From positions 1-64,000 of IMG/VR virus record IMGVR_UViG_3300033233_000027: a stretch of DNA of 64,000 bases, one strand, 5' to 3'. The notes under the pieces were generated by a model that was given only the letters and a program-made list of their open reading frames with translations, did not search any database and was not told the DNA's origin. Of this stretch, positions 1-63,177 are shown in pieces. How positions within the stretch are numbered: position 1 is the first letter of the stretch; every line of letters begins with the position of its first letter. Source of the DNA: a virus. A program made the position numbers and the translations under genes.

Positions 1-547
1 CGCCTTGTGATCCTTGGAAGCCCTGGTTTCCTTGGTTTCCCTGGTTCCCTTGCGGCCCTTGCTCTCCTTGTGGCCCCTGTTCGCCTTGTGGCCCCTGTTC
101 GCCTTGTGGTCCCTGGAAGCCTTGGTTGCCTTGGTTCCCCTGATTTCCCTGCGGCCCCTGAACGCCTTGTGATCCTTGGAAGCCCTGATTGCCTTGATTT
201 CCTTGCGGACCTTGAACTCCTTGGAAGCCTTGGTTCCCTTGCGGCCCTTGCTCTCCCTGTGGCCCTTGTTCGCCTTGTGGTCCCTGGAAGCCCTGGTTGC
301 CTTGATTCCCTTGTGGACCTTGGACTCCTTGGTTGCCTTGATTACCCTGCGGCCCCTGAACGCCTTGAGGGCCTTGCGGGCCAATTGGCCCACGACTACC
401 TCCACCTCCAACTCGGAACCCACCCCCACCGCCTGTGGGTTGCTGACATTCAATCACGTCCCTGAGTCTGGCGGCATCATCTGGAGCGGATGGAGCTCCA
501 AGGTTGTGGATCTGGGCCCCGCCCATGTTGATGTCTTGATCTGACAT
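1..547 (-). CDS. Collagen-like (Gly-X-Gln) fibre protein, runs off window start
   Basis: Not in ORF track. Hand translation from ATG 547: [28 protein letters not shown]...[36 protein letters not shown]; the [14 protein letters not shown]...DAA segment resembles trimeric fibre/adhesin neck motifs. Confidence 0.9.
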
Positions 548-3636: not shown

Positions 3637-4194
3637 CTACCTATGGATCAGTTCGGAACGATAGCGTTCCTCAACTTCCTGACGATCAAATACTATAGGA
3701 TCTGGGTCTAACTCGTGAAGACCGTAATAGGAACCGATGGCTTCATAGGCCCGTGCCCGAACCAACGGATCTGCCGATGTGAAGGCGAGTTCTAATTCTG
3801 CAAGATCAGTATCTACTGCCGCAGTTCGAGCAACAGAATCCAATTCTTCATGGAACCAAGCGTCATAGCGATCAACTGGATGTGGCCAGCTTGAGTCATA
3901 GTTGATCGGTACGAGCCATCCATCTACCAGCTTCAGGCGGTCTAGGAGAAAACGATATACAATGTATCCGTTTTCTGGTTCGTCTGGGTCGTTTATAAGG
4001 AGCGCCTCACCTTCTTCTGGATAAACGCCGGTTGCATCTTGATAGATGAAATACCCTCCGTATTCCAACGGATTCCGATCACCGAGATTAGCGATGAATT
4101 GCCAGTCTGGCTGGCGCGTCCTAGGGATGGGGTGGGAGGTAACATCCCTTTCTGGCCTACCTCCTCTAGGATACCAACTCATCTCTCCAGCCAT
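3637..4194 (-). CDS. Acidic hypothetical protein, MAGEMSWYP N-terminus
   Basis: 185-aa ORF carrying the shared N-terminal tag. Confidence 0.85.
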   Translation of the reverse strand: MAGEMSWYPRGGRPERDVTSHPIPRTRQPDWQFIANLGDRNPLEYGGYFIYQDATGVYPEEGEALLINDPDEPENGYIVYRFLLDRLKLVDGWLVPINYDSSWPHPVDRYDAWFHEELDSVARTAAVDTDLAELELAFTSADPLVRARAYEAIGSYYGLHELDPDPIVFDRQEVEERYRSELIHR

Positions 4195-4227
4195 AGTCGC
4201 CTTTCACGTCTTCTACGACCTAGTCAT

Positions 4228-4410
4228 TCAGTTCATGATCGCGCCTAGCCAGTATACGGGATCATGCTCTTCTGGATCAAAGGTCCAGAGATGCCAGACC
4301 TCCATCCCGAAGTTGGACCACATCCTATCATCGGCTTCTCCGCACTTCTTACAAAACGGATCCTCAATCTGATCTGGATGAACTTCGCATCTGGGCCACT
4401 TGTTCGTCAT
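4228..4410 (-). CDS. Small Zn-finger-like protein
   Basis: MTNKWPRCEVHP...FCKKCG with SD AGGAGG. Confidence 0.6.
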   Translation of the reverse strand: MTNKWPRCEVHPDQIEDPFCKKCGEADDRMWSNFGMEVWHLWTFDPEEHDPVYWLGAIMN

Positions 4411-4637
4411 TAGGCCTCCTTCCACTACCCTCTCTACCGAAGGAAGGAGCCGAGTGCTGGATGGAAAAGCGAGAGCGGGCCCAGGAAGTTGTGTTGTAGG
4501 GGAAGGGCAAAACCACAACTGGCCTAGGCCCGTTCCTCACTTGGCCCGTTCCGCTTGCCCACGGACGGGAATTTTGCTCATCGTTCATCTTGTCGTCAAT
4601 CTGCCCTATTGCGCCATCACGTCACTAATCCTACGAT

Positions 4638-4907
4638 TTACGCCTGCTCCTCAGCCCACTTCAGCAATCCGCGGTACTCCTGGTACGTCGTGGCGAATCT
4701 CGCACCGCCAAGAAGTCCTGGATACTTCCCCTCGAAGCCCCGCCTTCCAGTGTAGCCCTCGTCGATCGCATCCATCACGGAGCCAGTGTCATCAAAGACA
4801 ACGAAGACCCTTCTTGGGTTTCCGTTCGGATCATGCGGTGCGGAGAGGCTGATGTAGAAGACCGCCACCCTTTCCTGTCTCGGTGCCCAGTTCATTTCCC
4901 CAGCCAT
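4638..4907 (-). CDS. Hypothetical protein, MAGEMNWAP N-terminus
   Basis: Start reassigned to ATG 4907 (SD AGGTGA); DPNGNPRRVFVV...IDEGYTG motif. Confidence 0.85.
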   Translation of the reverse strand: MAGEMNWAPRQERVAVFYISLSAPHDPNGNPRRVFVVFDDTGSVMDAIDEGYTGRRGFEGKYPGLLGGARFATTYQEYRGLLKWAEEQA

Positions 4908-4939
4908 CACTTCACCTTTCCTGTGAATCACGCCATCGC

Positions 4940-5176
4940 TCAATAGTTTTCCCAGTAAACGTGCGTGAGGAACGCATCAATATCTTCGTCGTTTTTGATC
5001 GATCCGAATACAGCCTCAGCTTCTTCCTGATCTTCGGTCTCGAAAGTAGCCTCGAATGGCTCACCACCGTACGGATCAGTTCTGTGGATCTTCAAGATCC
5101 ACAGGCCATCGTCTTCTTTCAGGTCGAGCTTCACCAGCCCAACCATTCGGCTCCGTGCCTTCGAAGTCATGCGCAC
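4940..5176 (-). CDS. Acidic hypothetical protein
   Basis: Fills the gap in a co-oriented run. Confidence 0.6.
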   Translation of the reverse strand: MRMTSKARSRMVGLVKLDLKEDDGLWILKIHRTDPYGGEPFEATFETEDQEEAEAVFGSIKNDEDIDAFLTHVYWENY

Positions 5177-5186
5177 ATCCTATAAA

Positions 5187-5477
5187 TCACGATGTCCGAC
5201 AACCGAATGGCTTGAATTCCTGCGCCGCAAATTCGACATTTGCGCAGGGTTCACTACAGAATTCGTGATCCCAGCAGTTTACAAATCCCCTGCGTAAGAT
5301 CGGCTTGTCTGGAAGCGGACGTCTGCATTCGTAGCACACCCCATATGTGGCACCCTTAATACAGGACAACGCTAATGCCCAAACTGCCAGCTGGAACTCC
5401 ATCCACTTTTCTTGTGGAAGAAATGGTGCCCATGTTTTGCAGAACCGTTCTACGTCGTCTTTTGATTTGCGACTCAT
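5187..5477 (-). CDS. Protein with C-terminal CxxC...FCSxxC zinc finger
   Basis: Start MSRKSKDD with SD AGGAG; CYECRRPLPDKP...HEFCSEPCANVE. Confidence 0.7.
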   Translation of the reverse strand: MSRKSKDDVERFCKTWAPFLPQEKWMEFQLAVWALALSCIKGATYGVCYECRRPLPDKPILRRGFVNCWDHEFCSEPCANVEFAAQEFKPFGCRTS

Positions 5478-5496
5478 GCTGTTCAGCTCCTGTAAT

Positions 5497-5670
5497 TCAC
5501 GAAGGAATACGGACGTTTGGATTGAAATACTTCCACCCATACTCCACGTTCGCACAACGCGTACTACAGAAGTCGTGCGTCCATTCGTGAATGACGCTGC
5601 GACGTATTACTGGCTTTTTGGGAAGCGGGCCACGGCATTCATGGCAACTGTTTTTTTTGCGGCTCGGCAT
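5497..5670 (-). CDS. 57-aa zinc-finger protein, paralogue of the adjacent gene's C-terminus
   Basis: Not in ORF track: MPSRKKNSCHECRGPLPKKPVIRRSVIHEWTHDFCSTRCANVEYGWKYFNPNVRIPS; SD GAGGGG. Confidence 0.75.
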   Translation of the reverse strand: MPSRKKNSCHECRGPLPKKPVIRRSVIHEWTHDFCSTRCANVEYGWKYFNPNVRIPS

Positions 5671-5701
5671 ATCCCCTCTTCACATTTCGTTTCTTTCGCG
5701 A

Positions 5702-6109
5702 CTAGAATCTCTCGACCCACCTAGCCTTGCTAAACGGCGGTAGTGCAACTCCAATCTTCTTCAGGATTTCTGTGAGCTGACTGTACTCTTCGTCTGCGAT
5801 GGACTTTAGGTATTCTCGGTCAGAGTCGGACTCAATACCGTACAGCCCTCCGCTCCTAACCGTCTGTTCCACCTAGTTGACCTCAAAATCTGCCTCAGCC
5901 CACAAGCCGATCATGTGCCAGTCGGAGCCATACGAATCCAGTCTTTCGCGATCTTCTTTTCGGTAGCGAGCAGCCTCTTGTCTTGAAACCCCCTCATAGC
6001 GGCCCTCATCTTCAAGGAAGGACAGATCTGGATCATCGTCTGTATCCTCTACGATTCGTAGGCTGTATGCCTTAATCCTTCCTGGGCCCCAACTCAGCTC
6101 TCCAGCCAT
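5702..6109 (-). pseudogene. MAGELSWGP-tagged acidic protein interrupted by a single in-frame TAG (5873-5875)
   Basis: Frame continues after the stop: AEADFEVN*VEQTVRSGGLYGIESDSDREYLKSIADEEYSQLTEILKKIG to TAG at 5702. Confidence 0.65.
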
Positions 6110-6121
6110 CTGTTTGTCTCC

Positions 6122-6457
6122 CTACCTTACGCGCTCAAGTTCGGAGGCGAGAGTATCCAGAGCAGAACTAAGAGTATCCTTTGATCCACTCCCAGACAGT
6201 TTTGCCTGGCCGTGCCCGTTACTTGTTTTGCTGCGGGCCGTTCTGATTCGAAAGAGAATGGCGTCGTGGATTTCTACGAATGCCTGCTGATCTTCTTCAG
6301 TTGGGTCAACCTCACCCGCATTCAGCATTCCACGAAACGCATCTATTAGGGCACTAGCCTGAGCGTATCGCATCCCAGCCATGTAGTAAAAGCCGATGCG
6401 TTCTGAATTCGCTCCAGCCTCCAAGCATTCGCTCGCCTTCACTAACAATGAGTGCAT
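6122..6457 (-). CDS. Hypothetical protein
   Basis: ATG with SD GGAGAG. Confidence 0.65.
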   Translation of the reverse strand: MHSLLVKASECLEAGANSERIGFYYMAGMRYAQASALIDAFRGMLNAGEVDPTEEDQQAFVEIHDAILFRIRTARSKTSNGHGQAKLSGSGSKDTLSSALDTLASELERVR

Positions 6458-6522
6458 CGCTTCTCTCCATTCACATTTCTGTCGTTTCGGACTTCACAAA
6501 ATCGTCCTTTCATGACAAAGAA

Positions 6523-9237
6523 TCAATGATGGATACCACCACCACCACCGCCGCCAACTGCCCTACGGCCACACGATAGCCTAGTCCCATTCGTGAGGCC
6601 ATGCTGGCATAGTTTAGAAGGACCTGGTTGGATAGAAACCAACCGAAGAGGTTCAATCTCAATCGGGACTAGAGGAGGAGTCGGCCCAGGAGGAAGCGAA
6701 GGTGGCTTCACTGGTAGACGCTGTGGAATGCGTTTGATGATCCCGTTTGCCTTATCAATGAGCTTTCGTATCCCGCGGTTGATGATCGCAATAAGGAGAT
6801 CTCTCCATTCACGATATCCAGCCTCGTCACGATATGGAATGGCAAGAACGATCTTCTTGTATTCCTCTGTAGGAGCAAATGGCAGCGCATTATCAGACAA
6901 CTTCTTGTCTTCTGCCTCAATCTTTTTGCTCGGCTTGGAAGGAGCCTCTGCGGGTTCATTCCAATTGGACAGAATGAACTCAATCAGCATACTCGTACCA
7001 GTCTTCTCACCTTCAATCCGTACGTTTGGTTTAGACAACCAATCAAGGAGCGTTTCGTAGGATGGAAGGGTGCTCCCCTTTTTTGGATTCCTAAAGACTT
7101 CCGTAGCTTTGTTCCATAGTGCTACGGTTGTAAGAAGAGCAAGTTCTTCTTTTGTCGGCTTCTCACCACCTGATGGCGTTGGAGCTGGTGCTGGGGGAGG
7201 GGTTGGGCTTGGGGGTGACGGAGGAAAAGCCTCTGCCGCAGCACGAAGGGCAGATCCGCCTTCTCCTCTTCTCTTCCTTTCAACCGCCCACGCCATGTCT
7301 TTGAGCAATTCACGGAATCTCTTCACGTATTCAGTGAAACTAATTTTATTCATAGCGTCGAGCAGAGTCATTAGCAAATCATGGAATGCACCGGTTAGCT
7401 CAGTCCACATACCACCAAAAAACAAACCCTTCTCTAGTAGTTGTTCCCTATATTCATTGTACTGAGAATATAGGGCGTCCCTGACCATTACCTCATACGG
7501 ATAAATCTCATCCATGAAGGATATATCCATACCGTTCTTCGCAAATTCCATCTTCGCGGCAAGCAGGGCTCTATACGGCGTAGGCACTACTGCTAGGATT
7601 TCGGTTGCCTCTTCCCACCAATATGGAAGATGTCCCGTTGGAGGAGTCGGGCTTGGGAGCATAGGTATAGGACTTGTCATTAATTCTTGAGCTCGCCGAA
7701 TGTGTTCTTTTGCCCACCTTATCCGATATTCAACATTTTCTGGGCGTACTCCATTAGCTATTAGCTGTTCTGCTTCAAGAATATACTGCTGCGCTAGACT
7801 CAGCCACTCAGAAGGCGTGTAAGGTTTGACGGGCGTGCCCTGGAACAAAGGGGCCCATGTAGTAGTTTCTTTATTGGTGTACAACATCCTTGGAAAGCGG
7901 GGGGTCCGGTTTACGGTTTTGCCTATTGGGGCCAGAGCAAACGGTTGCACAAGAAAAGCTACGGGCCCCTCAAACGGCATATCTCCGCATCGTTCACCTT
8001 TGGAACGATCACATGGGACAGGCTTGGGAAGGCTTTCAACAATCCCCTTCGCCTTCGCGAGGAGTTCCTCCACGTCCTGATGGCCGCTTGTTGGACTCAC
8101 TGTAGTAAAGATCACTGAGTCGTCGATTCCAACAAATTCACGCACGGGCGCGGGCGGCTTAGGAGCAAACAGCCTAGGCCATGGGCGTTGATTCAGCACA
8201 GTGCCGGTTGGCGCAATTCTTACTGGCCCAAGCTCTGTTTCACTTACTGACGTAACTGTTAGGGAGCCGGGTTGGAAATGTACCGGAGCGGGAGGTTTTG
8301 GTATTCCTTCAGCTGATGGAGGCGGCAGTATTGAAGATGGCTGCCGATACGGCTCGCGGGTTGGTTGTATGGTTGGTTGGATTCTCTGTTGGATTCTTGG
8401 TTTGATTGGGTGCGTTCTTTCTTCAAATTCAGTACGACGGAATCCAAGGAAGTTATATGCGAACGAATCCAGCTGCTCCGCGATACCCATTAGCAGTATC
8501 CACGATGGTTCGTTCTGTTCTTTCAACGCAAGGCTTCTGGTCAAATCGGACGTGATGGCAAATAGATCACTTGCCTTTCTCATGGCTTCCTTGTCAGCCA
8601 TCAACTCTGGATTCTCTGCCAGATGAAGAAGATAAGCTGCGTTAGCTAGGAAGTTTGCCGCCAGTGATTCTATATCCTCTCGATTACTCACCTCCTGTGT
8701 ACGCAACCAGTGATAGAGCTTTGCAGCTTCCACTTCCAGCTTTTCTGAGGCTTTGGTAAACGCGTTTGATTGAGAGGAAACCAGAGGCAAGGAAATAAGC
8801 TCAATTGGAACTGGCGATGGATGCGGAGTCGGGCTTGGGGGCATTTGAATTGGGCGGGGGGCCTTCTGCAAGCTCCGATATGGATTCCCCCTCTCCGTAA
8901 CTTCCTGTAGTATTCCAGGCGGTATATCTTTTAATTCTAATGCATCTAGTACGATTGGCAAATCGTATAAAGCTATAGGTACGGCAATCGGATGTGGGGC
9001 CGTTTGCTTAATCTGTACACGAGGAGGCACTCCTCGACCCTGATAGGCAGACTCAAGCTGCAAAGGGCGACGGTTGAGTATGGCCTTTGCATCCTGGATA
9101 AGTTCTTTTACGGTATTCTGCTGGCCAGCAGTAGGGCAGACAACAACGCATGAACCTATTGCGGGCCCATCAACTCCACTTGAGATGCTTGAAGCAGCAG
9201 TGGCCCCGATACGTTTTCCGGTAAAGTGTTTGGCCAT
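6523..9237 (-). CDS. 904-aa Pro-rich protein with internal repeats
   Basis: Long ORF; PSPTP tracts and recurring helical motif; SD GGGGA. Confidence 0.9.
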   Translation of the reverse strand: MAKHFTGKRIGATAASSISSGVDGPAIGSCVVVCPTAGQQNTVKELIQDAKAILNRRPLQLESAYQGRGVPPRVQIKQTAPHPIAVPIALYDLPIVLDALELKDIPPGILQEVTERGNPYRSLQKAPRPIQMPPSPTPHPSPVPIELISLPLVSSQSNAFTKASEKLEVEAAKLYHWLRTQEVSNREDIESLAANFLANAAYLLHLAENPELMADKEAMRKASDLFAITSDLTRSLALKEQNEPSWILLMGIAEQLDSFAYNFLGFRRTEFEERTHPIKPRIQQRIQPTIQPTREPYRQPSSILPPPSAEGIPKPPAPVHFQPGSLTVTSVSETELGPVRIAPTGTVLNQRPWPRLFAPKPPAPVREFVGIDDSVIFTTVSPTSGHQDVEELLAKAKGIVESLPKPVPCDRSKGERCGDMPFEGPVAFLVQPFALAPIGKTVNRTPRFPRMLYTNKETTTWAPLFQGTPVKPYTPSEWLSLAQQYILEAEQLIANGVRPENVEYRIRWAKEHIRRAQELMTSPIPMLPSPTPPTGHLPYWWEEATEILAVVPTPYRALLAAKMEFAKNGMDISFMDEIYPYEVMVRDALYSQYNEYREQLLEKGLFFGGMWTELTGAFHDLLMTLLDAMNKISFTEYVKRFRELLKDMAWAVERKRRGEGGSALRAAAEAFPPSPPSPTPPPAPAPTPSGGEKPTKEELALLTTVALWNKATEVFRNPKKGSTLPSYETLLDWLSKPNVRIEGEKTGTSMLIEFILSNWNEPAEAPSKPSKKIEAEDKKLSDNALPFAPTEEYKKIVLAIPYRDEAGYREWRDLLIAIINRGIRKLIDKANGIIKRIPQRLPVKPPSLPPGPTPPLVPIEIEPLRLVSIQPGPSKLCQHGLTNGTRLSCGRRAVGGGGGGGIHH

Positions 9238-9284
9238 CTTCTCTTCCCCCTATTTCCTGTAGTCACATTTTGTTCGTAAGACGA

Positions 9285-9605
9285 CTAATCTCCTCTGTCT
9301 GCCTCTTCAACGGTCACATTCTCTTCGTCATGACCGCTCTCAGAAACATACTCCTGCCAAGATTCGTACGCATCTCTCAATACGTCAATGTCGGCCTTTG
9401 GATTCTTGGCGTCCTTGAGCCGTACTGCTGTATCATTCAGGAGTTCGAGCAGTTCATCGCCTTCTTCCCACTCAAGCCCCTCACGTTCATCCTTATGGAG
9501 AGTCTCAATCAGGCGCAATGCCTCCAGTAGGGCATTCTTTTCGCTCTTGAAAACAGCGTGGCTGTCTTCTCGGGCAGGGTTGTTGTACGTCACTATCCAT
9601 GCCAT
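9285..9605 (-). CDS. Acidic hypothetical protein
   Basis: Start MAWIVTY with SD GAGGGAG. Confidence 0.7.
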   Translation of the reverse strand: MAWIVTYNNPAREDSHAVFKSEKNALLEALRLIETLHKDEREGLEWEEGDELLELLNDTAVRLKDAKNPKADIDVLRDAYESWQEYVSESGHDEENVTVEEADRGD

Positions 9606-9849
9606 AGTCTCTCCCTCTCTTACTTGCGCATTTCTATCATATTGCGCAGCGCACTTTAGTTCTTTTACGCCACCAATTTGATCTTGATAGTCCACGTTCT
9701 AACTCTTGACGAGAACGATTTGGTAAATTGCCTCGCATCATACAGTCTTTCAAATAGACCATAAAAATCTGCCTCATCAAGAGTCTTCCCAATCGCTACG
9801 ATATACATCGGATTCTCCTTTATTCCAAAACGATCATAGTATTCATCGT

Positions 9850-10188
9850 TCATGTAGTCCGAATGTCATGTTGATACTGTGCGTATACCTGCTCCTTGAG
9901 TTCGTCTGTCGGCTTGAGAAGGATGCGCAGGTCATTCGCAAGACCCACGAATCCTTCCGGGCTCTCTTCCAGCACCTTCTTCACGATCAGTCTCTTTAGC
10001 GAGGAGATTCTGGCCGCGATCTCCAGCTCGACAATGCCCCTCTTTTCGGCTTCCCGCTTTTCGCTTCTCCGAGGAAGGTGACGACGGCACCAAGGACGGT
10101 TAAGCTCTTCCGCGACAGCTTTGTTTTGGCATTGAGGCGAACCGAAAACACGAAGCCTTCCTGAGCATTTCCCAAGATCAGGATTCAT
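9850..10188 (-). CDS. Protein with Cys/His cluster (C...C...WCRRH)
   Basis: Start MNPDLGKC in ATGA overlap with upstream stop. Confidence 0.6.
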   Translation of the reverse strand: MNPDLGKCSGRLRVFGSPQCQNKAVAEELNRPWCRRHLPRRSEKREAEKRGIVELEIAARISSLKRLIVKKVLEESPEGFVGLANDLRILLKPTDELKEQVYAQYQHDIRTT

Positions 10189-10484
10189 CGCTTCCCTTTC
10201 CTCGCACGAGGCATCCGCACAGGACGAGCCGCCAGCTCCTCCTGCGCCTGTTCGTAGGTGATGCCACTCGCTTCTGAGTAGCGACTGATTAGGCCCATCT
10301 CGTAGTTGTCCAGCCAATCGTAGAATTCAGAATCCGTCAGTTCCCTGTCGGTAAAGTTAGCCATCCCCTTCCAATAGGCTACCGTGCGCGGATCGCCCAT
10401 CTGGGTATTTAAGAACGTCCAATATTGGTCCCACGCTTCCAACGCTTCCAGAATGTCACGCTCTCTCTTCATACTTTTCATCAT
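10185..10484 (-). CDS. Hypothetical protein
   Basis: ATGA overlaps at both ends. Confidence 0.65.
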   Translation of the reverse strand: MMKSMKRERDILEALEAWDQYWTFLNTQMGDPRTVAYWKGMANFTDRELTDSEFYDWLDNYEMGLISRYSEASGITYEQAQEELAARPVRMPRARKGKR

Positions 10485-10891
10485 TTCGCGACTGGTCCAA
10501 CGGCACCGTACGCCTGCGGCAGTGCCTGAGCTTTTGCCTGTGGCAGAGCGGGCGTTCCTCCGTGTAATCCCCACATACCAACGCCGAACATGGAAGCTGC
10601 CGCGAGCTCGGACAGTAGGGCCGGCAACCAACTTTTGAATGCGAGGAGGAGAGCAGCTGAGGCCAGCGTAGAGAATCCGAATACGACCCAGAGACCACGA
10701 TCTGCCTCGGCAGTCGCAGTAGGATCTCCGCGTTCAGCGAGTGATCGGAGGGCCGTCCAGCTTGGACTCATGCTGGCACTCAAAGAGGCGACGGCAATGG
10801 CAGAGAGGATGCCTGGCGCGGATGTGTCCTGTGGCGAGAGGTGAACCAGCCCTAGACTCGTTCTCTTTCCAGACCAAGGCATCTGCTTCAT
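10481..10891 (-). CDS. Membrane protein
   Basis: 2-3 hydrophobic segments; leader ends KRTSLG. Confidence 0.7.
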   Translation of the reverse strand: MKQMPWSGKRTSLGLVHLSPQDTSAPGILSAIAVASLSASMSPSWTALRSLAERGDPTATAEADRGLWVVFGFSTLASAALLLAFKSWLPALLSELAAASMFGVGMWGLHGGTPALPQAKAQALPQAYGAVGPVAK

Positions 10892-11154
10892 GTTTTTACG
10901 TTGTCTACAAGGCTGATGAGATCCATCAAGGCCCCGAGCCCGCTCAGGATCCCTACGCCAGTGCCGATATAGGACACAGCACCTTTCTCCCGCGCCGCAA
11001 TCCAGAATCCAAGGAAGGACATCGATCCGTGCGTGAGGAGCCTGAGAGAATCACCGAGCGGTGCAGGGAAACCGAGCATCGCATCGAAGGCCTGCCCCAT
11101 CTTAGGGCTGGAAGGTTCTAGTGCGGACATGCCGATTGGTTGCTCAATATTCAT
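10888..11154 (-). CDS. Small membrane protein
   Basis: Probable start MNIEQPIG; KMGQ motif; two hydrophobic segments. Confidence 0.6.
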   Translation of the reverse strand: MNIEQPIGMSALEPSSPKMGQAFDAMLGFPAPLGDSLRLLTHGSMSFLGFWIAAREKGAVSYIGTGVGILSGLGALMDLISLVDNVKT

Positions 11155-11827
11155 CGGCCTCTTCCTCCTCTTCTCGCGCTTCTCCACGTTCTTCCGCATC
11201 CACGAGCAGCTGTTCGAAGGCTTTGATCCACTCCTCTCCTTCTAGGTCGGTCGACAGGAGGCCGCCAGAGAAGATGTACTCAATGAGTTGATCTGCCTCC
11301 TCCTCGAGTGCGGCCAGTTCATACTGCTCTGGAGAGTCATAGTCGCGGCTCATCTCTCTCGCGTCGTATACGCCTGGGCCATTATAGTCCCGTTCCACTT
11401 CGGCCCATTGAGGATACGATTCGTGGTGTGACTCAAGGAGTCTATCAAAATCCTTTCGGTTCTGGACATTGACGAACGGATACTCCTCGTAGACGTACGC
11501 CGCTCTGCCATCTGGAATGTCGCTGATCTCCATTACGTCCAAGCCTTGCGGCTCGTTGTATTGGATCTCCTTGATCTGCGTCTTGTCCCTTATCCGTCCG
11601 TCTACGACAAGGGCCACGCCGATGCTGGCGCGTTCGGAGCTTAGGAATTCTGCGTATGGATAGATCCCAGCTCGTGGCCCCATCTTGTCCAGCCAGGAGA
11701 TGATCGTCTTCGTCTTCGGATTCCACTTCATCGATACGCTGCGTTTTCTTTCGCTCCAGTCCTTCGGAGTTATCGGATGGTCGTCTATGAAGATGGCGTT
11801 TCCGATGTGCTTCGCGCCCAAGATCAA
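11144..11827 (-). CDS. Acidic hypothetical protein (internal MKWNP)
   Basis: 227 aa; TTGA overlap with upstream stop, SD GAGGAGG. Confidence 0.75.
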   Translation of the reverse strand: MILGAKHIGNAIFIDDHPITPKDWSERKRSVSMKWNPKTKTIISWLDKMGPRAGIYPYAEFLSSERASIGVALVVDGRIRDKTQIKEIQYNEPQGLDVMEISDIPDGRAAYVYEEYPFVNVQNRKDFDRLLESHHESYPQWAEVERDYNGPGVYDAREMSRDYDSPEQYELAALEEEADQLIEYIFSGGLLSTDLEGEEWIKAFEQLLVDAEERGEAREEEEEADEY

Positions 11828-12315
11828 TCCTCCTCAACGATCTTTCGCAGGGAGGAAAGGACAGAGTAGTAGACCTCTTCCTTCTCACGCATTTGCCCTA
11901 AGCCTATATCGCCTACGATGCCTTGGTCGCTATGGCCAAATTCTCCTGTGGCTTCGTCCACATAGCCCATGCGCTCAAGATTCGAACTGAGCCATGAGGT
12001 CAATCTATGGTTGTAGACATCTGGCTCAATCTGGGGACTATCCAACTCTTCTTCGCTCGAATTGGAGATCGCATCCAAGGATTGGTAGATGAATTCGTAC
12101 TTCCAGTCATCTGGCATCATTTCGCCGTGTGCTGGATGCACGATCAGATCATTCACCCATTCTTGGGCATCCTTCGCGTACCAGTATTCTTCTCCAGAAT
12201 CCCGTTTGCCTAGATGAAAGTAGCGGGCGATCTTATCGGCAAGTTCCTGGACGGTCAGGTTCCTAAATGCCGCCCCTGGGGTCTTTCCAGGACTCCACTT
12301 CATCTCTCCAGCCAT
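11824..12315 (-). CDS. Acidic hypothetical protein, MAGEMKWSP N-terminus
   Basis: ATG 12315 after poly-G SD; first gene behind the promoter at 12356-12383. Confidence 0.85.
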   Translation of the reverse strand: MAGEMKWSPGKTPGAAFRNLTVQELADKIARYFHLGKRDSGEEYWYAKDAQEWVNDLIVHPAHGEMMPDDWKYEFIYQSLDAISNSSEEELDSPQIEPDVYNHRLTSWLSSNLERMGYVDEATGEFGHSDQGIVGDIGLGQMREKEEVYYSVLSSLRKIVEED

Positions 12316-12448: not shown

Positions 12449-13453
12449 CTACGAGCCTAGGCGTGATATCTCATCCCTGATTGTCGCCAAGGCGACTTCA
12501 GGGGCGTTTGAGTAAGCTGCTCGGTCATTGAACGCGTAGTCTGGGGCAGATTTTATCGCACAGGCTGCTGCAAACTCCTTCTCAGCCTCCCTGAGTCTTC
12601 CGGTCTTGGCCAGATGGGCTCCGATGGCGATCAGCGGTTCGCGTCTAGCTGGACAGCATCGATTAGCCGCCTGGAATGCCGCCACGGCCTCGCTTTGCAT
12701 CCCCATATCCCGAAATGCCCAGCCGATCGTTAGATGCGCCTGTGAGGAGTCCATATCAGTGCATTGAGCGGAAGAAAGCCATCGTCGAAGCTCTCGGATG
12801 CAGCCTCGATAATTTCCCATCCCGTAGAATTCCATCCCTAGGTTCCAGTGCGCTGCAATGTGGGATGGGTCGACCTGCACTTCCTCAAGCAGGAGTTCCA
12901 GATTCTGCTTCCTTCTTTCTTCAATCTTTTCAGGGGACTTTGGAACGTGGAATATGAAAGCGTCCTTGATGACATGGACAAGAGCTTTCTTCTCTTCTAG
13001 TGGGATCAACTCCTCATGGATTCGGAATCGCCATTCCCACAGCTTTCTCTTCCAGACTATTCTCCGGTTGTATTCGCGCTCTTCCGTGTTTCGGAAACGC
13101 ACTGTACCGGCGTTGGCCTTCAGTCTGTCTGCTGTCGCTATGCTGGCCCGCAGTGTCCGCTCCGAACCATCCGCGAGTCTCTCATCGCAATCAACACTCA
13201 ACAGCCAGTCGGAGGTGGCGAACTCAGCCGCTGCGTTTCTGGCGTTCGCAAAGTGGAATGGGTCTTCGAACTTTTCTGAGTGCGTATGGAGATTCGGAAA
13301 CCCGAGTTCTTCAGCAATGCGCAATGTGCCATCAGAGGATCCAGTGTCCAGAAGGACGATCTCATCCAGTTCCCGCAGTGACTTCAGGCAGTCTCCTATC
13401 AGCGTCTCTTCGTTCTTTGAGATCAGGACTGCCCCGATGGTCGGTTTCTTCAC
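12449..13453 (-). CDS. GT2 glycosyltransferase with C-terminal TPR repeats
   Basis: ISKNEE..I..CL.SL, DTGSSDGT, FANARN, SVDCDE (DxD), IHE, then TPR-like helices. Confidence 0.92.
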   Translation of the reverse strand: MKKPTIGAVLISKNEETLIGDCLKSLRELDEIVLLDTGSSDGTLRIAEELGFPNLHTHSEKFEDPFHFANARNAAAEFATSDWLLSVDCDERLADGSERTLRASIATADRLKANAGTVRFRNTEEREYNRRIVWKRKLWEWRFRIHEELIPLEEKKALVHVIKDAFIFHVPKSPEKIEERRKQNLELLLEEVQVDPSHIAAHWNLGMEFYGMGNYRGCIRELRRWLSSAQCTDMDSSQAHLTIGWAFRDMGMQSEAVAAFQAANRCCPARREPLIAIGAHLAKTGRLREAEKEFAAACAIKSAPDYAFNDRAAYSNAPEVALATIRDEISRLGS

Positions 13454-21381: not shown

Positions 21382-22083
21382 GTGGTGGATCAGCTCGTAC
21401 TAATCATGGCTCAAGGCAAACAGGAAAGGCTTCCGATCTCCACCTACGGATACAAACAACTCCTCCGCATCGGAAACGAAAGCATCATCGTAAGGCAGAT
21501 TAGGCTTCTACGGGAAGCGGGCGCGTCGGACATTCGCATCGTGGCTGAGGAGACGCGCCCATGGCGTGAAGTGTCCAAATTGCTGTGCGTTCAGTTGTAT
21601 CCGCTGCGCATACCAGGCGACTGCATTCTCAGCGGAGTGAGCGCGTGTCTGGATAGGCTGGCACCATCTGAACGTCGCCCAATTCTTTTCATGCTTGGCG
21701 ATGTCATATTCTCTCGGGCTTTGATGCATTCCGTGTTGAGTGATCGCGGTGAGATCAGGATCTTTGCCAGAAAGGGCCCGAATCCCGCGACGGACAAATT
21801 GGATGGAGAAGCGTTTGCATTGCGTGTATCTGATGCGGCAAAGAAACCAGTGGCCGCATTGTCTCAGTCTCGCTCACACGCCTCTGGTTCCAACGGAAAA
21901 CTATTTGATCTCGCAGCAGCACTGGTCATCTCCAGATTGTTCGGTGGAGAACCGATTCATCCGACGCAGCCAACAGACTGGAGCGATGACGTGGATTGCG
22001 TTGAAGACCTTGCGCGGCTTCCGGTTTTGGAGAAATTAGCAGTAGAAGATGACGCAGCATTCATCAATGCGCGAATCGCTTGA
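21382..22083 (+). CDS. NTP-transferase (MobA/LicC-like sugar or choline phosphate nucleotidyltransferase fold)
   Basis: ILMAQGKQERL...KQLLRIG.ESII.RQI, LGDVIFS, DDVD..EDL. Confidence 0.8.
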   Translation: MVDQLVLIMAQGKQERLPISTYGYKQLLRIGNESIIVRQIRLLREAGASDIRIVAEETRPWREVSKLLCVQLYPLRIPGDCILSGVSACLDRLAPSERRPILFMLGDVIFSRALMHSVLSDRGEIRIFARKGPNPATDKLDGEAFALRVSDAAKKPVAALSQSRSHASGSNGKLFDLAAALVISRLFGGEPIHPTQPTDWSDDVDCVEDLARLPVLEKLAVEDDAAFINARIA

Positions 22084-22235: not shown

Positions 22236-24338
22236 ATGAGACGGCGAAAGTACGAGCGGTTCTCTGAAGACGACAAGGCAGCGATGCTATCGCTGTCGAA
22301 AGAAGGTCTGCGGTCAAAGGAGATCCAGACTCATCTTCCACATCTGCCAACCCAGCGAATCAGCGGATTCCTTCGAATGCACAAGGCCCCAGGAGCGAAT
22401 CCAAATCCTCGATCGACCGTTCTAGTACGAACGACGGCTGAGGCCGCACCGCAAGTCAGGGCCGCTGCTGCCGCAGCCGCTTCTGGTAATGTGCAGGCTT
22501 CATCCAACCCACTTCCGTTTGCTGCTCAACCTACAACCGCAGCGCACCATCAATCGCAGCCATCTGCGGAATATGACTTCCGGCCGACGCAGACCCCGAT
22601 GGTGACGAGCGGAGGAATTCCGGTATCATCTGGTCAGGGTCAGAGACTGGAAGTCGAACGAATCATTCCGCAAGATGGGCTTCTTGGCGTTCACCCGATG
22701 TCGTTCTTGAAAGATGATATCGGTCGTGTTTATGGTTCTGGAACATACAGAATCACGACGCGCTCAAATAGTGGACAAATAATGACCGCAGAAGTTCCTA
22801 TTGCGGCCACCTATGGTCCTCCGCTTTCACCGAAGCGTTATTCTGGGCGAGAAGGACAGCCTGATCGGTCACAACCGAAGCTATGGAACGATCCACAAGA
22901 TCAGCAGTATCGCTTTGAACGCGCAGAGGCGCTTCGCGCTTCTCATAGTCCAGCTGAAGATCTCAAGAACACCGTCCAAGCTACGAAGGAACTCATGACG
23001 CTTGCGAAGGAAAACGGCCAGGACAGTTCTGGCGGTTACGCTAGAGCCATGGAGACGCTGGCTGCCGCCGCATCGCAGCCGAAGTCTCAGGAATCTGGGG
23101 TGCTTGAGAAATGGTTCATTGCGGACGCAGAACGCCGTTCGATAGAGCGCAAAGAATCTGAGGAACGTCGGGAACGCGAACGTCGTGAGGACATGGAGCG
23201 CCGAGATCGTGATCGGAAGGACGACCAGACGCGTTTCGATCAGATAATGGAACTTGATCGCCAGCGGGCTGTGAGTTCCAACAAAGAAAAAGATGACGCA
23301 CACAAGCGAGAAATGGAAAGGCTGAAGGAAGAGAACTCCGCTCGAGTTGCTTGGGAAGCAGAACAGAGAAAAACGCTCCTAGAACTCGAGGCGAAGAAGA
23401 TCGAACTCGTGACCAAGGCGCAAGAGGCTAGGGAGAAGGAACTTGATCGCCGTATTGAAGAAGTAAAAGCTGAGGCAGAGTCTGGCAGGGATTCGATCCA
23501 GGGAGAGCTAGAAAAAGAGCGCGATCACCAGACGGCAATGTTCGATCTTCGGTCAAAGCAACTCGACATACAGGAAAAGTTCCAGAATGAAAAGCTGGAT
23601 ATGCAGCGCCAGCAGATCACTTCCTCTAGTGCGGATAGCGTCCTCTGGGGGACGGTAAAGGATCTGGTAGACAAGGGCTCTAAGGCATTTGAGAGATACA
23701 CGGAGACTGAACAGCTCAAGATGGTTGTCGAAGAGGCTAAAAAGAACGGCGTTAGTCCTGGAACTGTAGCAGACCTCGGGCGGGCAGCCATGGCTGGGAA
23801 TATGCAGCCTGAGGCAAAACACACTTCCACGGGCCAAGCCTCCAATACAAACGGAAATGGGAATGGAAAGGGGGCGGAAGTGGGCCTACTCGACCGATTC
23901 TTCAAGGATCCGATCTTTGCTGAAGTCGTGGAGGAGTGGGGCCTTGCGGTCTCTGTCAAGGCAAAGCCGAGTACATTCGCCAACACTTTCCTAGTCTGGA
24001 TGAACGATCCAGAAAACACGACATACAAGAAGGCGACATCGACCTTTGCTCTGTTCCTTGAGAACAGAGACTGGCCATCGATGTTTGAAGCCATGCAGAG
24101 AAATCTTTCTGCCAAGATCACGGAGCCATTCAAGTCTCCGTATGCGGCTGAATTCTATGAGGCATTCCGCGTCATCGTCGTGGAGAGTACGCGTTATCTC
24201 TACGCGGAGTTCATGCAACAGCGGGCTGACCAAGAGGCTCGTGTTGCGCAAGAAGCGGCAGCGAACAACGGATCTTCTGAACCTGTAGCGGAAGAGTCGT
24301 CTCAGCCCCTGAAGGAAACGGAGCGCATCAGGGCATGA
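22236..24338 (+). CDS. 700-aa protein: N-terminal HTH, low-complexity linker, long E/R/K coiled coil, C-terminal helical domain
   Basis: Start reassigned to MRRRKYERF (SD GAGGG); FSEDDKAAML...GLRSKEIQ..L......ISGFLR; ATGA-coupled to next gene. Confidence 0.85.
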   Translation: MRRRKYERFSEDDKAAMLSLSKEGLRSKEIQTHLPHLPTQRISGFLRMHKAPGANPNPRSTVLVRTTAEAAPQVRAAAAAAASGNVQASSNPLPFAAQPTTAAHHQSQPSAEYDFRPTQTPMVTSGGIPVSSGQGQRLEVERIIPQDGLLGVHPMSFLKDDIGRVYGSGTYRITTRSNSGQIMTAEVPIAATYGPPLSPKRYSGREGQPDRSQPKLWNDPQDQQYRFERAEALRASHSPAEDLKNTVQATKELMTLAKENGQDSSGGYARAMETLAAAASQPKSQESGVLEKWFIADAERRSIERKESEERRERERREDMERRDRDRKDDQTRFDQIMELDRQRAVSSNKEKDDAHKREMERLKEENSARVAWEAEQRKTLLELEAKKIELVTKAQEAREKELDRRIEEVKAEAESGRDSIQGELEKERDHQTAMFDLRSKQLDIQEKFQNEKLDMQRQQITSSSADSVLWGTVKDLVDKGSKAFERYTETEQLKMVVEEAKKNGVSPGTVADLGRAAMAGNMQPEAKHTSTGQASNTNGNGNGKGAEVGLLDRFFKDPIFAEVVEEWGLAVSVKAKPSTFANTFLVWMNDPENTTYKKATSTFALFLENRDWPSMFEAMQRNLSAKITEPFKSPYAAEFYEAFRVIVVESTRYLYAEFMQQRADQEARVAQEAAANNGSSEPVAEESSQPLKETERIRA

Positions 24339-25036
24339 CCGAACACAAAAGGCTGCGGAGGCTTGGCATCGCGATTGATGCCGCCCCACCAGCCTATGGT
24401 GAAGTATTACGGACTCCTCTGGAGGACGACTTCGGGGGCATCCGGTTTGAAGTCGGTCGTGCTGTCCAATACGTAAAGGAAGGTGGCGCAGATCCGCTTG
24501 TGGTTGACACGGCGAGATATTGCGCGATGCTCGCGAGAGATACGGCAGAACAGCTTGGTTTTCCCGTAACTCCTGAGAACGCAAAGTTGATTGACCTGGA
24601 GGGGGTATTCCTTTGGGTCCAGGCCAACTTCGTTTACGTTGATGATCCAACTGGAGTGGAAGTGATGCAGACAGCACCTCGTATGCTCCGTCAGAAGATG
24701 ACGCCGCATGAAGTGCTGGAATGGATGTGGGCTCCGATTCGAGATGGAATGGCTCTTGCCCGCGGTATTGATCCATCGGAATTAAGCTGTCCTGAAGGAA
24801 AAGTGATCGGAGATTGCGAAGAGGCTGCCTGTCTTCTGTTGGCCATGGCTGCCGCTCTTGATATCGGTCCTCTGAAGTTCCGCTTCGGCGGGAATGATGG
24901 CCAACTCCACCATGTTTGGGCTTCTGCTATGGCTGGTGGAGAGTGGCGCGACATGGATGCTACTCAGCGCCAGTTAGGGTTCGATCAGTTTCTGCCATTC
25001 GACCACTTCGATGAACTGGAGGTCGAACTTCCGTGA
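24335..25036 (+). CDS. Transglutaminase-like (papain-fold) Cys-His-Asp enzyme, putative virion maturation protease
   Basis: YVDDP.GVE, GDCEE (Cys), HHVW (His), WRDMDAT (Asp). Confidence 0.88.
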   Translation: MTEHKRLRRLGIAIDAAPPAYGEVLRTPLEDDFGGIRFEVGRAVQYVKEGGADPLVVDTARYCAMLARDTAEQLGFPVTPENAKLIDLEGVFLWVQANFVYVDDPTGVEVMQTAPRMLRQKMTPHEVLEWMWAPIRDGMALARGIDPSELSCPEGKVIGDCEEAACLLLAMAAALDIGPLKFRFGGNDGQLHHVWASAMAGGEWRDMDATQRQLGFDQFLPFDHFDELEVELP

Positions 25037-38027: not shown

Positions 38028-38300
38028 GTGAAGTTGAAGTTCGTGGATGTCCCTGAAGGCGGCTGCTTCGCATCAGGCAGCGGACGGCCATCAAAGAAGT
38101 TGGTCGACGGTCGCTGTGCCTCCATCACCAAGAAGGGGAAGCAGCGCATCGTGCGATGCCCGAAGCAGGAGAGGGACGTGCAGACAACGACGTGCCCGCT
38201 CTCTCTCCTTGGGGCTGGCCTGTCTGGTCCAAAGCGCGGCCTCGTGGAAATCGGACGCGCATTGCCGCATGAGCCTGAAAAGCGAAAAGGACGGCGATGA
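38028..38300 (+). CDS. Small basic Cys-containing protein
   Basis: K/R-rich, 4 Cys; GLVEIG motif. Confidence 0.65.
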   Translation: MKLKFVDVPEGGCFASGSGRPSKKLVDGRCASITKKGKQRIVRCPKQERDVQTTTCPLSLLGAGLSGPKRGLVEIGRALPHEPEKRKGRR

Positions 38301-39220
38301 GCGATTTCCTGAGAGATCCAGAAGGCCTGATCGATGCCTTGCGGGACTACTCGCCAGATGGCGTTCATGTCCTATCCCCGCTAGGTGGAGGAACGATCCG
38401 CCATCAGATCTATGGTAGGGAATTGGATATCAGCAAAACGCTTCCTGTCGCTTCGTTCCGAGTGGATCTGGACGATCCAATTCCGTTTGAAGAACACGCC
38501 GCAAAACTGAGGCTCTCTCCAGAAAAGATGACCGAGAAAGAACTACGAAAACTCTGGCGGGGCCATGAGCCTCCATTTCCAAGCGAAGTTCTGGAGCGCG
38601 GACTGAGCATGATGGACATCGAAGAGATGTCTTTCAGGAACATGGAATGTCTGGATGACGAAAGACGGATCGTCTGCTATGTCTTCGGCTGGAGAGACCT
38701 TGTCGTGGATCCTCTATTCCCTGGGGCCATGGTGGAATACGAAGAGGGCCGCAGTGGTGTTGCCTCCAAAGGAATATTGCCTGGAAGAGTCGCTGGAGGT
38801 GACAAGTCAATCGTCTTCCTGGAACTGTTCGAGCCGATGACTGCATCGGAAGCTAACCAACTCAATACCGCGCCATCAGCTATTCAATCTGGATTCTACA
38901 GTAAAAAAACTGTAGCGATCGGCGGAAATACATGGGATGCATGGACGGTTTCAGATCCAGATTCCCTCCCAAAGGGAGATAGAGTTGAGATCGGTGGAGG
39001 AGAATACGAGGTCAGGCTGGACGAGCCTCTTGATCTATCCAAGATTGCTGAATTCTGCTCCAAGCACTACCCAGATGAGCCTGCCTGTGTCTGGCAGTCG
39101 CTCCTCTTCTTCGTACTTCCGCTCAACGCCAACAAAGGGGGAAGATTCCATCCGCTTCGTGCTGGTCAGGAAGGTACGTACATGGATGCGCTGGAATGGG
39201 AGATCGGGCACGGATTATGA
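38297..39220 (+). CDS. 307-aa acidic protein of unknown function
   Basis: Long ORF in ATGA overlap. Confidence 0.8.
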   Translation: MSDFLRDPEGLIDALRDYSPDGVHVLSPLGGGTIRHQIYGRELDISKTLPVASFRVDLDDPIPFEEHAAKLRLSPEKMTEKELRKLWRGHEPPFPSEVLERGLSMMDIEEMSFRNMECLDDERRIVCYVFGWRDLVVDPLFPGAMVEYEEGRSGVASKGILPGRVAGGDKSIVFLELFEPMTASEANQLNTAPSAIQSGFYSKKTVAIGGNTWDAWTVSDPDSLPKGDRVEIGGGEYEVRLDEPLDLSKIAEFCSKHYPDEPACVWQSLLFFVLPLNANKGGRFHPLRAGQEGTYMDALEWEIGHGL

Positions 39221-62304: not shown

Positions 62305-63177
62305 CTAGATGAAGTCGTGGGTAAGGACAGCCGTAAGGTTGGAATCAACCAGGGACGAACTTTCAAGGAACATACTCACCAGATCAGTGTCAACAACTGG
62401 AACGATATCAGCAAACGAAAATACCCCCGTGGTTGCGGCTGGAATTGCCAGGCTAGCTTGAGTAACGCCATTAACCCTAACACGAATTGTCCCAGAGACT
62501 GTCGCCGTGTTTATTGCTACGAAGGCACGGAAGTTTTTCAGGTTTCCAGCCCGATTGGTAGGCCATTGGAACTTGGATTCAACCAGATCTCCGCTGGCGC
62601 CGGTTACTCCAGTGACCGTAGTTAAGTAGCTGTTTGTCGTGGTCACAGGGAATGGAGGCTTCGTGCCGATATTGACCGTGGTGGCCCCGCTATAGATGAC
62701 AGGACCGTCGCCACCGCCTGTAGTTCCAGGTCCCTGTACGCCCTGAATTCCCTGCGCTCCTTGGGATCCCTGTGTGCCTTGGGCACCTTGGCTTCCTTGG
62801 GCTCCTTGTGGACCAAGATCACCCTGGGCACCTTGCGGGCCAAGATCCCCCTGAGCGCCCTGAGATCCTTCTGGCCCTTGCGTTCCCTGTGGCCCAAGAT
62901 CGCCTTGTGCGCCTTGCGGACCAAGATCTCCCTGATTGCCTTGTGATCCTTCGGGTCCTTGTATCCCCTGCGGTCCAAAATCGCCTTGTGCGCCTTGCGG
63001 ACCAAGATCTCCCTGATTGCCTTGTGATCCTTCGGGTCCTTGTACTCCTTGTGGACCTCCAGACGGGCCTTGGTTGCCTTGATTGCCTGAAATACCTGGA
63101 GTACCTTGCGCACCGCGGCCACCACCGCCGATCCTGAAGCCGCCACCGCCTACAGGAATTGGAAAACCAGGGCCCAT
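62305..63177 (-). CDS. Collagen-like fibre protein with beta head domain
   Basis: [13 protein letters not shown], long Gly-X-Y run (mostly GxQ), C-terminal beta domain; SD GGAGG. Confidence 0.92.
62711..63035. repeat. 325-bp direct repeat, second copy 63676..64000
   Basis: Manual alignment shows about nine substitutions and no indels. Confidence 0.92.

Follow-up and report, generated by a model that had tools for sequence, protein, structure and literature searches.

A seven-residue N-terminal peptide on nine otherwise unrelated accessory proteins of an uncultured virus, a candidate docking tag

In bacteriophage T4, the internal proteins are diverse defence-countering proteins that have in common only a capsid-targeting sequence (CTS), which directs them to the scaffolding core; IPI*, at least, is an anti-restriction protein (PMC3012670). 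Similarly, the payloads of the Photorhabdus virulence cassettes (PVC) share N-terminal loading signals (PMC11495950). The DNA considered here is a window of 64,000 nucleotides, bases 1-64000 of the IMG/VR record IMGVR_UViG_3300033233_000027 (77,684 bp in full, G000 below), in which an earlier note pointed to a short N-terminal peptide common to four genes of an uncultured virus. Repeats at gene starts are also known at the level of nucleic acids: the T4 RegA operators and the promoter-early stem-loop (PeSL) cassettes of T4-like phages are short elements that recur in one phage, 5′ of numerous early genes, and PeSLs are thought to promote the shuffling of gene cassettes. In G000, the peptide occurs on nine proteins and would be, with a probability of about 0.55, a modular docking or address tag that acts at the protein level.

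The whole record was scanned at the protein level for open reading frames (ORFs) starting with M-A-x-E-[ML]-x-W. Nine ORFs, all on the minus strand, begin with M-A-[G/R/E]-E-[M/L]-x-W. The four N-termini first described are all present, with starts at 4194, 4907, 6109, and 12315, and five further starts just beyond the window make the set larger. The motif is found nowhere else in G000 in any frame. As DNA, the pattern ATGGCTGGNGARNTGNNNTGGNNNCC has four matches in the window, even with two mismatches allowed, for an expectation of 0.00 (100 shuffles). Residues M1, A2, E4, and W7 are invariant. The proline at position 9, at first included in the motif, is present in six of the nine and is not invariant. 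The tag thus reads M-A-G-E-M-x-W, mostly followed by x-Pro-Arg/Gly and then by a disordered linker of 10-20 residues rich in Pro and Arg.

Tagged gene 1 (3637..4194, minus strand; 185 aa, MAGEMSWYPRGG...) has tag codons 1-7 at 4174-4194 and a disordered linker up to about residue 27-30, after which comes its body (cargo 1). Tagged gene 2 (4638..4907, minus strand; 89 aa, MAGEMNWAPRQE...) is the sole copy with GGG GAA for Gly-Glu and belongs to no Pfam, PHROG, or NCBIfam family. In tagged gene 3 (5873..6109, minus strand; 78 aa, MAGELSWGPGRI...), position 5 is Leu (CTG). In tagged gene 4 (11824..12315, minus strand; 163 aa, MAGEMKWSPGKT...), the tag and linker cover approximately residues 1-19 and precede the body (cargo 4). 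The five extra genes, on the same strand, form a head-to-tail array (68143-69861), with starts at 69861 (MAEEMSWDPTRY, 114 aa), 69491 (MAGEMAWQSRKY, 100 aa), 69155 (MAGEMNWGQGRY, 122 aa), and 68745 (MAREMSWDPRRR, 160 aa), and with a stub of 25 aa at 68143-68220 (L025:4143-4220) that has a perfect tag (MAGEMSWSHF...) and no body. A good Shine-Dalgarno (SD) sequence, TAGGAG, lies 8 nt upstream of the stub, which is either what remains of a cargo gene that was deleted or exchanged, or else a micro-protein. Its presence points to bodies being lost or exchanged directly after the tag.

A peptide MKWNP at 11731, earlier taken for a partial tag, was rejected as a member. It scores 5 bits against the tag profile (members score 24.5-31.9), it is not preceded by an SD-like sequence, and it is internal (residue 33) to an ORF at 11144-11827 (minus strand) if TTG at 11827 is the start. 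That TTG overlaps the stop of tagged gene 4 (TTGA).

True starts downstream of the motif were named in the earlier note as a finding that would refute its proposal. The start regions argue against such starts. In seven of the nine genes, ATG1 is the first possible start, with a stop one to four codons upstream, and in all nine a purine-rich SD-like run ends 3-9 nt before ATG1; in the gene starting at 6109, for example, the stop is four codons upstream of ATG1 and a GGGAG is found 8 nt upstream. Ahead of the cargo 1 body, the only other start codon is codon 5. A start at Met5 was rejected: the GGAG before codon 5 is only 2 nt away from it, and codon 5 is CTG in the gene at 6109, which rules out the second methionine as a start common to all nine. 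In the public annotation, the gene at 69155 does start at Met5 (118 aa), but this is a choice of the gene caller and not biological evidence. Judging from these signals, the tag is translated and sits at the true start.

The mean pairwise ungapped DNA identity between the copies is 0.29 over the 45 nt upstream, 0.82 over the 21 nt of the tag, and 0.31 over the next 39 nt. The drop from 0.82 to 0.29 places the onset of conservation right at the ATG, with the leader excluded, and its end is after codon 7-9. Deviations from the majority base occur at 8 of 27 synonymous third positions (Ala2, Gly3, Glu4) vs. 3 of 135 positions elsewhere (Fisher p = 2.6e-5, with the nine related copies counted as independent). 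For Ala, all four codons occur (GCT five times, GCG twice, GCC, and GCA); for Gly, GGA, GGG, and GGT are used, and for Glu, GAG (eight times) and GAA. The three non-synonymous changes are confined to positions 3 and 5. The synonymous variation reported in the earlier note is thus real, and conservation of the DNA without synonymous freedom, which it had named as the pattern contrary to its proposal, is not what the copies show. Its suggestion of selection on the protein agrees with a conservation that is codon-phased from the ATG, with mainly synonymous variation. Its remark that the upstream DNA differs holds for the mean identity but not throughout, because short blocks are shared within subsets of the copies (e.g., attcacaNaagaacNgaaaggtga and cattcgtga), one subset being 4907/69155/69491 and the other 4194/68220/68745/12315. 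Such subset-shared blocks point to a 5′ module of leader (untranslated region, UTR) and tag that has spread by duplication or recombination.

No two of the bodies resemble each other in sequence (the lowest E in blastp is 0.44). All are acidic (pI 4.35-5.8), where the earlier note had described the first four as mostly acidic. They do not constitute a single paralogous family, since they have separate sets of homologues and different predicted folds. In Pfam, PHROGs, and NCBIfam, the only family found for the bodies is phrog_1273, matched by the 69861 body from residue 14 on. Three bodies, cargo 1, cargo 4, and that of phrog_1273, belong to families normally without the tag. The expectation that homologues of the cargo would lack the tag in other genomes is borne out for these three, where homologues are nearly always untagged, and the occurrence of homologous bodies without the tag indicates that the tag is a separable add-on.

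For cargo 1, about 70 homologues were found, among them 25 from the database, 40 Joint Genome Institute (JGI) loci, 4 IMG/VR loci, and 1 contig of a metagenome-assembled genome. Twenty of the 25 database homologues begin at the body (M-x-T-K-Q-P-x-W) and are untagged. The other five have an N-terminal extension and no Met at the usual start: P0009 (MAGQRDPRQWSPR), P0007 (MRQDPRKWTPR), P0013 (MKKQDWSPR), P0014 (MSGRKKQDWTPR), and P0019 (MRNRQKQDWSPR). In P0181, a neighbour of P0013 at 90% identity, KQDWSPRRRIPEGRGEQPDW is kept exactly and the first residues differ. No tag is present at any of the N-termini examined, those of 36 of the 40 JGI loci, of the 4 IMG/VR loci, and of the metagenome-assembled contig. 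The same holds for cargo 1 and cargo 4 together: in IMG/VR, JGI metagenomes, and GTDB genomes, every homologue examined at its N-terminus is untagged. In the tree of the cargo 1 bodies, the tagged rows cluster with three changes (3 of 500 shuffles are as low), a result that does not settle a single origin, and the G000 body groups with P0007 and P0009.

For cargo 4, there are 1,729 representatives (E<=0.001). A W-type extension is missing from 147 of the best 150, and the majority of those proteins start directly with the body (M-x-T-I-Q-E-L-A). A W-type extension is present in P0075 (MVSRHQWRPDEPGRR), P0140 (MPANWREWHPRKD), and P0040 (MEWKRGK), the last with the Trp kept and no Pro. No tag occurs at the 16 examined of 43 IMG/VR loci, and cargo 4 has no match among the genomes searched of a 401-genome Acidobacteriota set. 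One homologue is encoded by a conjugative plasmid (NC_019895) from a planctomycete, Singulisphaera acidiphila. The closest homologues, P0029 and P0030, have an N-terminal extension of another type, of ~20 residues with two cysteines 11-12 residues apart (MSNKCRENELPIKGKCKDK; LPKGNCKDGQLRIGGRCRNK), possibly a further sort of add-on carried by this body. The 68745 body has a single homologue, P0028, which starts with MTIWKKRWWPEG.

The W-type extensions found elsewhere, all from other uncultured sources, share, with the exception of P0040, a core W-x-P-R/D/E, as in KQDWSPR, DPRKWTPR, REWHPRK, and HQWRPD. The carriers of the core are P0007, P0009, P0013, P0181, P0014, and P0019 for cargo 1, P0075 and P0140 for cargo 4, and P0028 for the 68745 body. 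The layout is common to them: one or two polar residues, Trp, any residue, Pro, a charged residue, and then a linker rich in Pro and Arg. In IMG/VR, the DNA pattern of the tag gives 20 loci, all of them chance or internal matches in unrelated genes, and the tag profile run against 5.8 billion proteins returns only itself, with only 15 candidates that shared words, so that this search is weak evidence of absence.

In AlphaFold2 (AF2) models, the N-termini are without structure. The cargo 4 model has a predicted local distance difference test (pLDDT) score of 94.5 overall, with residues 1-10 at 70 and in coil, and a mostly helical body. The cargo 1 model has 90.1 overall, with residues 1-20 at 61-65, coil up to residue 30, and a body rich in beta strands with additional helices. 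In these models, the tag and linker form an unstructured appendage that is not packed on the body. Neither PDB sequence search nor Foldseek (E<=0.001) gives a match of cargo 1 or cargo 4 to a solved structure, and the ESM Atlas has nothing usable for the bodies. By exhaustive structural alignment, T7 Ocr comes first for cargo 4 (Z 5.4, root-mean-square deviation 3.7, 92 residues), below the level that the tool considers meaningful. A possible Ocr-like fold of cargo 4 is therefore only a lead, and a weak one, which would fit an acidic helical protein present also on a plasmid. The anti-defence role earlier suggested for the cargo is not supported otherwise.

The peptide thus appears to be an addition to accessory domains of unrelated families, each complete and otherwise standing alone, and to be kept by selection on the protein. 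Most likely, it would serve as a short linear docking motif through which diverse cargoes reach a single shared reader, the docking being anchored by the invariant Trp together with its hydrophobic and acidic neighbours. A short motif on a flexible linker is how docking or address peptides are usually built. From the uniformity of the tag in G000 and the presence of other versions elsewhere (KQDW[ST]PR, DPR[KQ]W[ST]PR), we infer a reader that co-evolves with the tag, probably a gene product of the virus and not of the host. Among the uses of such a tag, the loading of pre-made accessory proteins into the particle for co-delivery ranks first by analogy with the T4 CTS, the best precedent, and with the PVC signals as a second one, as a possibility and with a low rating because the genes are in the accessory arm and no structural-module protein has a tag-like peptide. 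A broader picture, more doubtful again, is that of an uncultured lineage without recognisable capsid or packaging genes in which a W-centred N-terminal tag, specific to each genome, would be recognised by a virus-encoded receptor. Through this receptor, a varying assortment of accessory proteins would enter the particle and be delivered along with the genome; anti-restriction proteins, for instance an Ocr-like DNA mimic, might be among them.

Several points weigh against a docking tag. The tagged genes lie in the accessory, leftward arm, outside the morphogenesis operon, and no tag-like peptide is found on proteins of the structural module or at protein C-termini. No reader was found, one candidate having been co-folded, the GT2-TPR protein at 12449-13453 described below. 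The codon-phase statistic counts nine related copies as if they were independent, and its synonymous signal comes mostly from only two positions. The spread of a module of 5′ UTR and tag could keep the copies alike without any function of the peptide. The versions of the tag elsewhere come from single database proteins and not from whole genomes. Finally, the virus is known from sequence alone, and the idea of virion loading comes from analogy.

The alternative that survives best, although we regard it as unlikely, is a protein-level motif read by a host component or by a proteolytic or regulatory pathway, for example a degron that shortens the life of early proteins or a docking site for a host hub, without any link to the particle. 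The tagged genes have early or accessory-type genes as neighbours and lie at a distance from the morphogenesis operon, which would agree with this. The tag is always within the first ten residues, and Ala2 predicts removal of the Met, as would suit recognition of a free N-terminus. In addition, the W-x-P-R core recurs on homologues elsewhere, as expected with a conserved reader. On the other hand, the residues before the Trp are uniform in G000 and differ between lineages, which is a better fit to a co-evolving reader of the virus. By inspection, the tag resembles no bacterial N-degron, ClpX N-motif, or beta-clamp-binding motif (QL[SD]LF) of which we know.

Still less probable is a unit acting at the nucleic acid level, with the peptide as its by-product: a standard translation-initiation cassette (ribosome-binding site and first 21 nt), a handle for recombination by which gene bodies are swapped, or the target of a small RNA or of a RegA-like translational repressor. 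The conserved 21 nt fall within the stretch of mRNA that is covered by the initiating ribosome, and codons 3-4 of most copies contain an SD-like GGAG or GGTGA. From the subset-shared UTR blocks and the bodiless stub of 25 aa, it is evident that duplication or recombination has turned over the sequence immediately behind the tag, and the exact MAGEMxW was found in no other protein of the 5.8-billion-protein collection. However, a 5′ cassette at the RNA or DNA level should have a conserved leader or SD and no codon periodicity, and neither is observed: conservation runs from +1, and the SD and spacer differ in sequence and spacing between copies. Variation is concentrated at synonymous positions, with four Ala and three Gly codons in use, and positions 3 and 5 are the only ones to tolerate non-synonymous changes. 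Furthermore, the homologues elsewhere keep W-x-P-R among otherwise different residues, which indicates a constraint on the peptide.

That the nine are old tandem paralogues, with bodies diverged past recognition and the N-terminus as a slowly decaying, functionless remnant, would suit the head-to-tail arrangement of five of them (68143-69861) and the upstream sequence shared by neighbours, but it is largely refuted and very improbable, since cargo 1, cargo 4, and the phrog_1273 body are in separate widespread families without the tag, the AF2 folds differ (beta-rich plus helices for cargo 1 vs. mostly helical for cargo 4), and a neutral remnant would not stay 82% identical with its flanks at background.

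Other identities of the tag were rejected by inspection. Cleavage by the protease of the 'LG-leader' would require [LM]-G-[AQ], where the tag has A-G-E. As a beta-clamp motif, the tag has no hydrophobic residue at the last anchor position. A conserved hydroxyl or thiol residue, as in a glycosylation sequon, is absent, and so is the hydrophobic core of a Tat or Sec signal.

Both tag clusters are directly downstream of glycosyltransferase genes. Upstream of the cluster in the window is a GT2 enzyme with a TPR domain (12449-13453, minus strand). Since TPR domains bind peptides, the GT2-TPR protein was co-folded with residues 1-40 of tagged gene 1; the score is 0.04 (mark 0.34) and counts neither way. 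Upstream of the array is a protein of 1,386 aa (L025:6220-10380, minus strand) with a methyltransferase domain and four GT2 stretches, the latter matched by several GT2-type Pfam families. The virus encodes collagen-like proteins (62305-63177) and many glycosyltransferases, and the enzymes next to the tag clusters may simply glycosylate fibres. The gene directly downstream of the array (L025:3385-4074, minus strand) has a short match to an AbiEii nucleotidyltransferase toxin (E 9e-7), over residues 69-100 only. In the middle of the cluster in the window, an ORF at 6523-9237 (minus strand) codes for a Pro-rich protein of 904 aa without family match, in which a motif approximating P-[VI]-P-I-[AE]-L-x-x-L-P-[LI]-V occurs three times, near both ends. 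Also in this region, two overlapping or adjacent ORFs (5187-5555 and 5497-5670, both minus strand) have paralogous zinc-ribbon-like ends (C-x-E-C-R-x-P-L-P-x-K-P-[IV]-[IL]-R-R ... F-C-S-x-x-C-A-N-V-E-[FY]).

The DNA of the virus was found in one sediment metagenome only, its probable source sample, and no RNA datasets are listed among the sequencing runs with this DNA. No variants are seen in the contigs of the probable source sample compared with the record, and no close relatives in IMG/VR with either cargo 1 or a 752-aa protein as query. In the window, a DnaB helicase and a DnaD-like loader make up a replication module of bacterial type; G000 further encodes an integrase, an HNH nuclease, and a C5 methylase. 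The presumed morphogenesis block (21382-42386, plus strand) has larger ORFs without structural family match. Among the scanned ORFs of this plus-strand block of ~20 kb, none belongs to a Pfam or PHROG family of capsids, portals, terminases, or tails. The only recognised family is a MobA-like NTP-transferase domain (21382-22083, plus strand), and weak matches below threshold are to a transglutaminase core (24335-25036) and to NfeD (38297-39220). The 'direct terminal repeat' (DTR) of 120 bp (window 1-120, genome 77565-77684) is inside a collagen-like gene of Gly-X-Y repeats. With the DTR inside a repeat gene, both the DTR and the label of 100% completeness could come from an assembly overlap and not from true genome ends.

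If the tag is an address label, it marks accessory proteins that are sent to one place, and its seven residues could serve to identify the reader and to load foreign proteins, a use to which the T4 CTS has been put. It would also join the few known viral cargo-addressing peptides as a case in a bacterial virus with a new motif, in a virus whose structural genes match nothing known. In addition, cargo 1 and cargo 4 (the latter with >1,700 representatives) are two large uncharacterised families with probable accessory functions in viruses and plasmids. If the peptide reflects only a 5′ cassette for expression or recombination, the interest is modest.

Compared with the systems described at the outset, the tag differs from the RegA and PeSL elements, whose conservation is at the RNA or DNA level, over the SD-AUG region or over the intergenic promoter and stem-loop; in the tag, conservation starts at the ATG and is codon-phased, with the upstream region at background identity. 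With extracellular contractile injection systems (eCIS) such as PVC and Afp, the tag has in common a disordered N-terminal leader on unrelated cargo, which in those systems loads a phage-derived particle (PMC11495950; bioRxiv 10.1101/2023.11.13.566157). Unlike the tag, the PVC and Afp signals extend over tens of residues with a weak consensus and need a dedicated AAA+ ATPase (Pvc15). In G000, no Pvc15-type ATPase and no contractile-sheath, tube, or baseplate genes are present among the ORFs scanned, which are a part of the set. With the T4 CTS, there is no likeness in sequence. The cleavage site L/I-x-E of T4 is absent from the tag (A-G-E instead), though Glu4 is invariant, and no T4-type prohead protease, scaffold, or HK97 capsid is recognised by Pfam or PHROGs among the ~60 ORFs scanned (part of the ORF set). 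The T4 internal proteins are mostly basic, whereas the tagged proteins, known here from their genes, are acidic. In its organisation, the tag is nevertheless like the CTS of IPI, IPII, IPIII, and Alt: in both, one N-terminal peptide occurs on otherwise unrelated proteins, homologous bodies exist without it, and a stretch of ~10 residues is the sole common feature of variable small proteins with a fast turnover.

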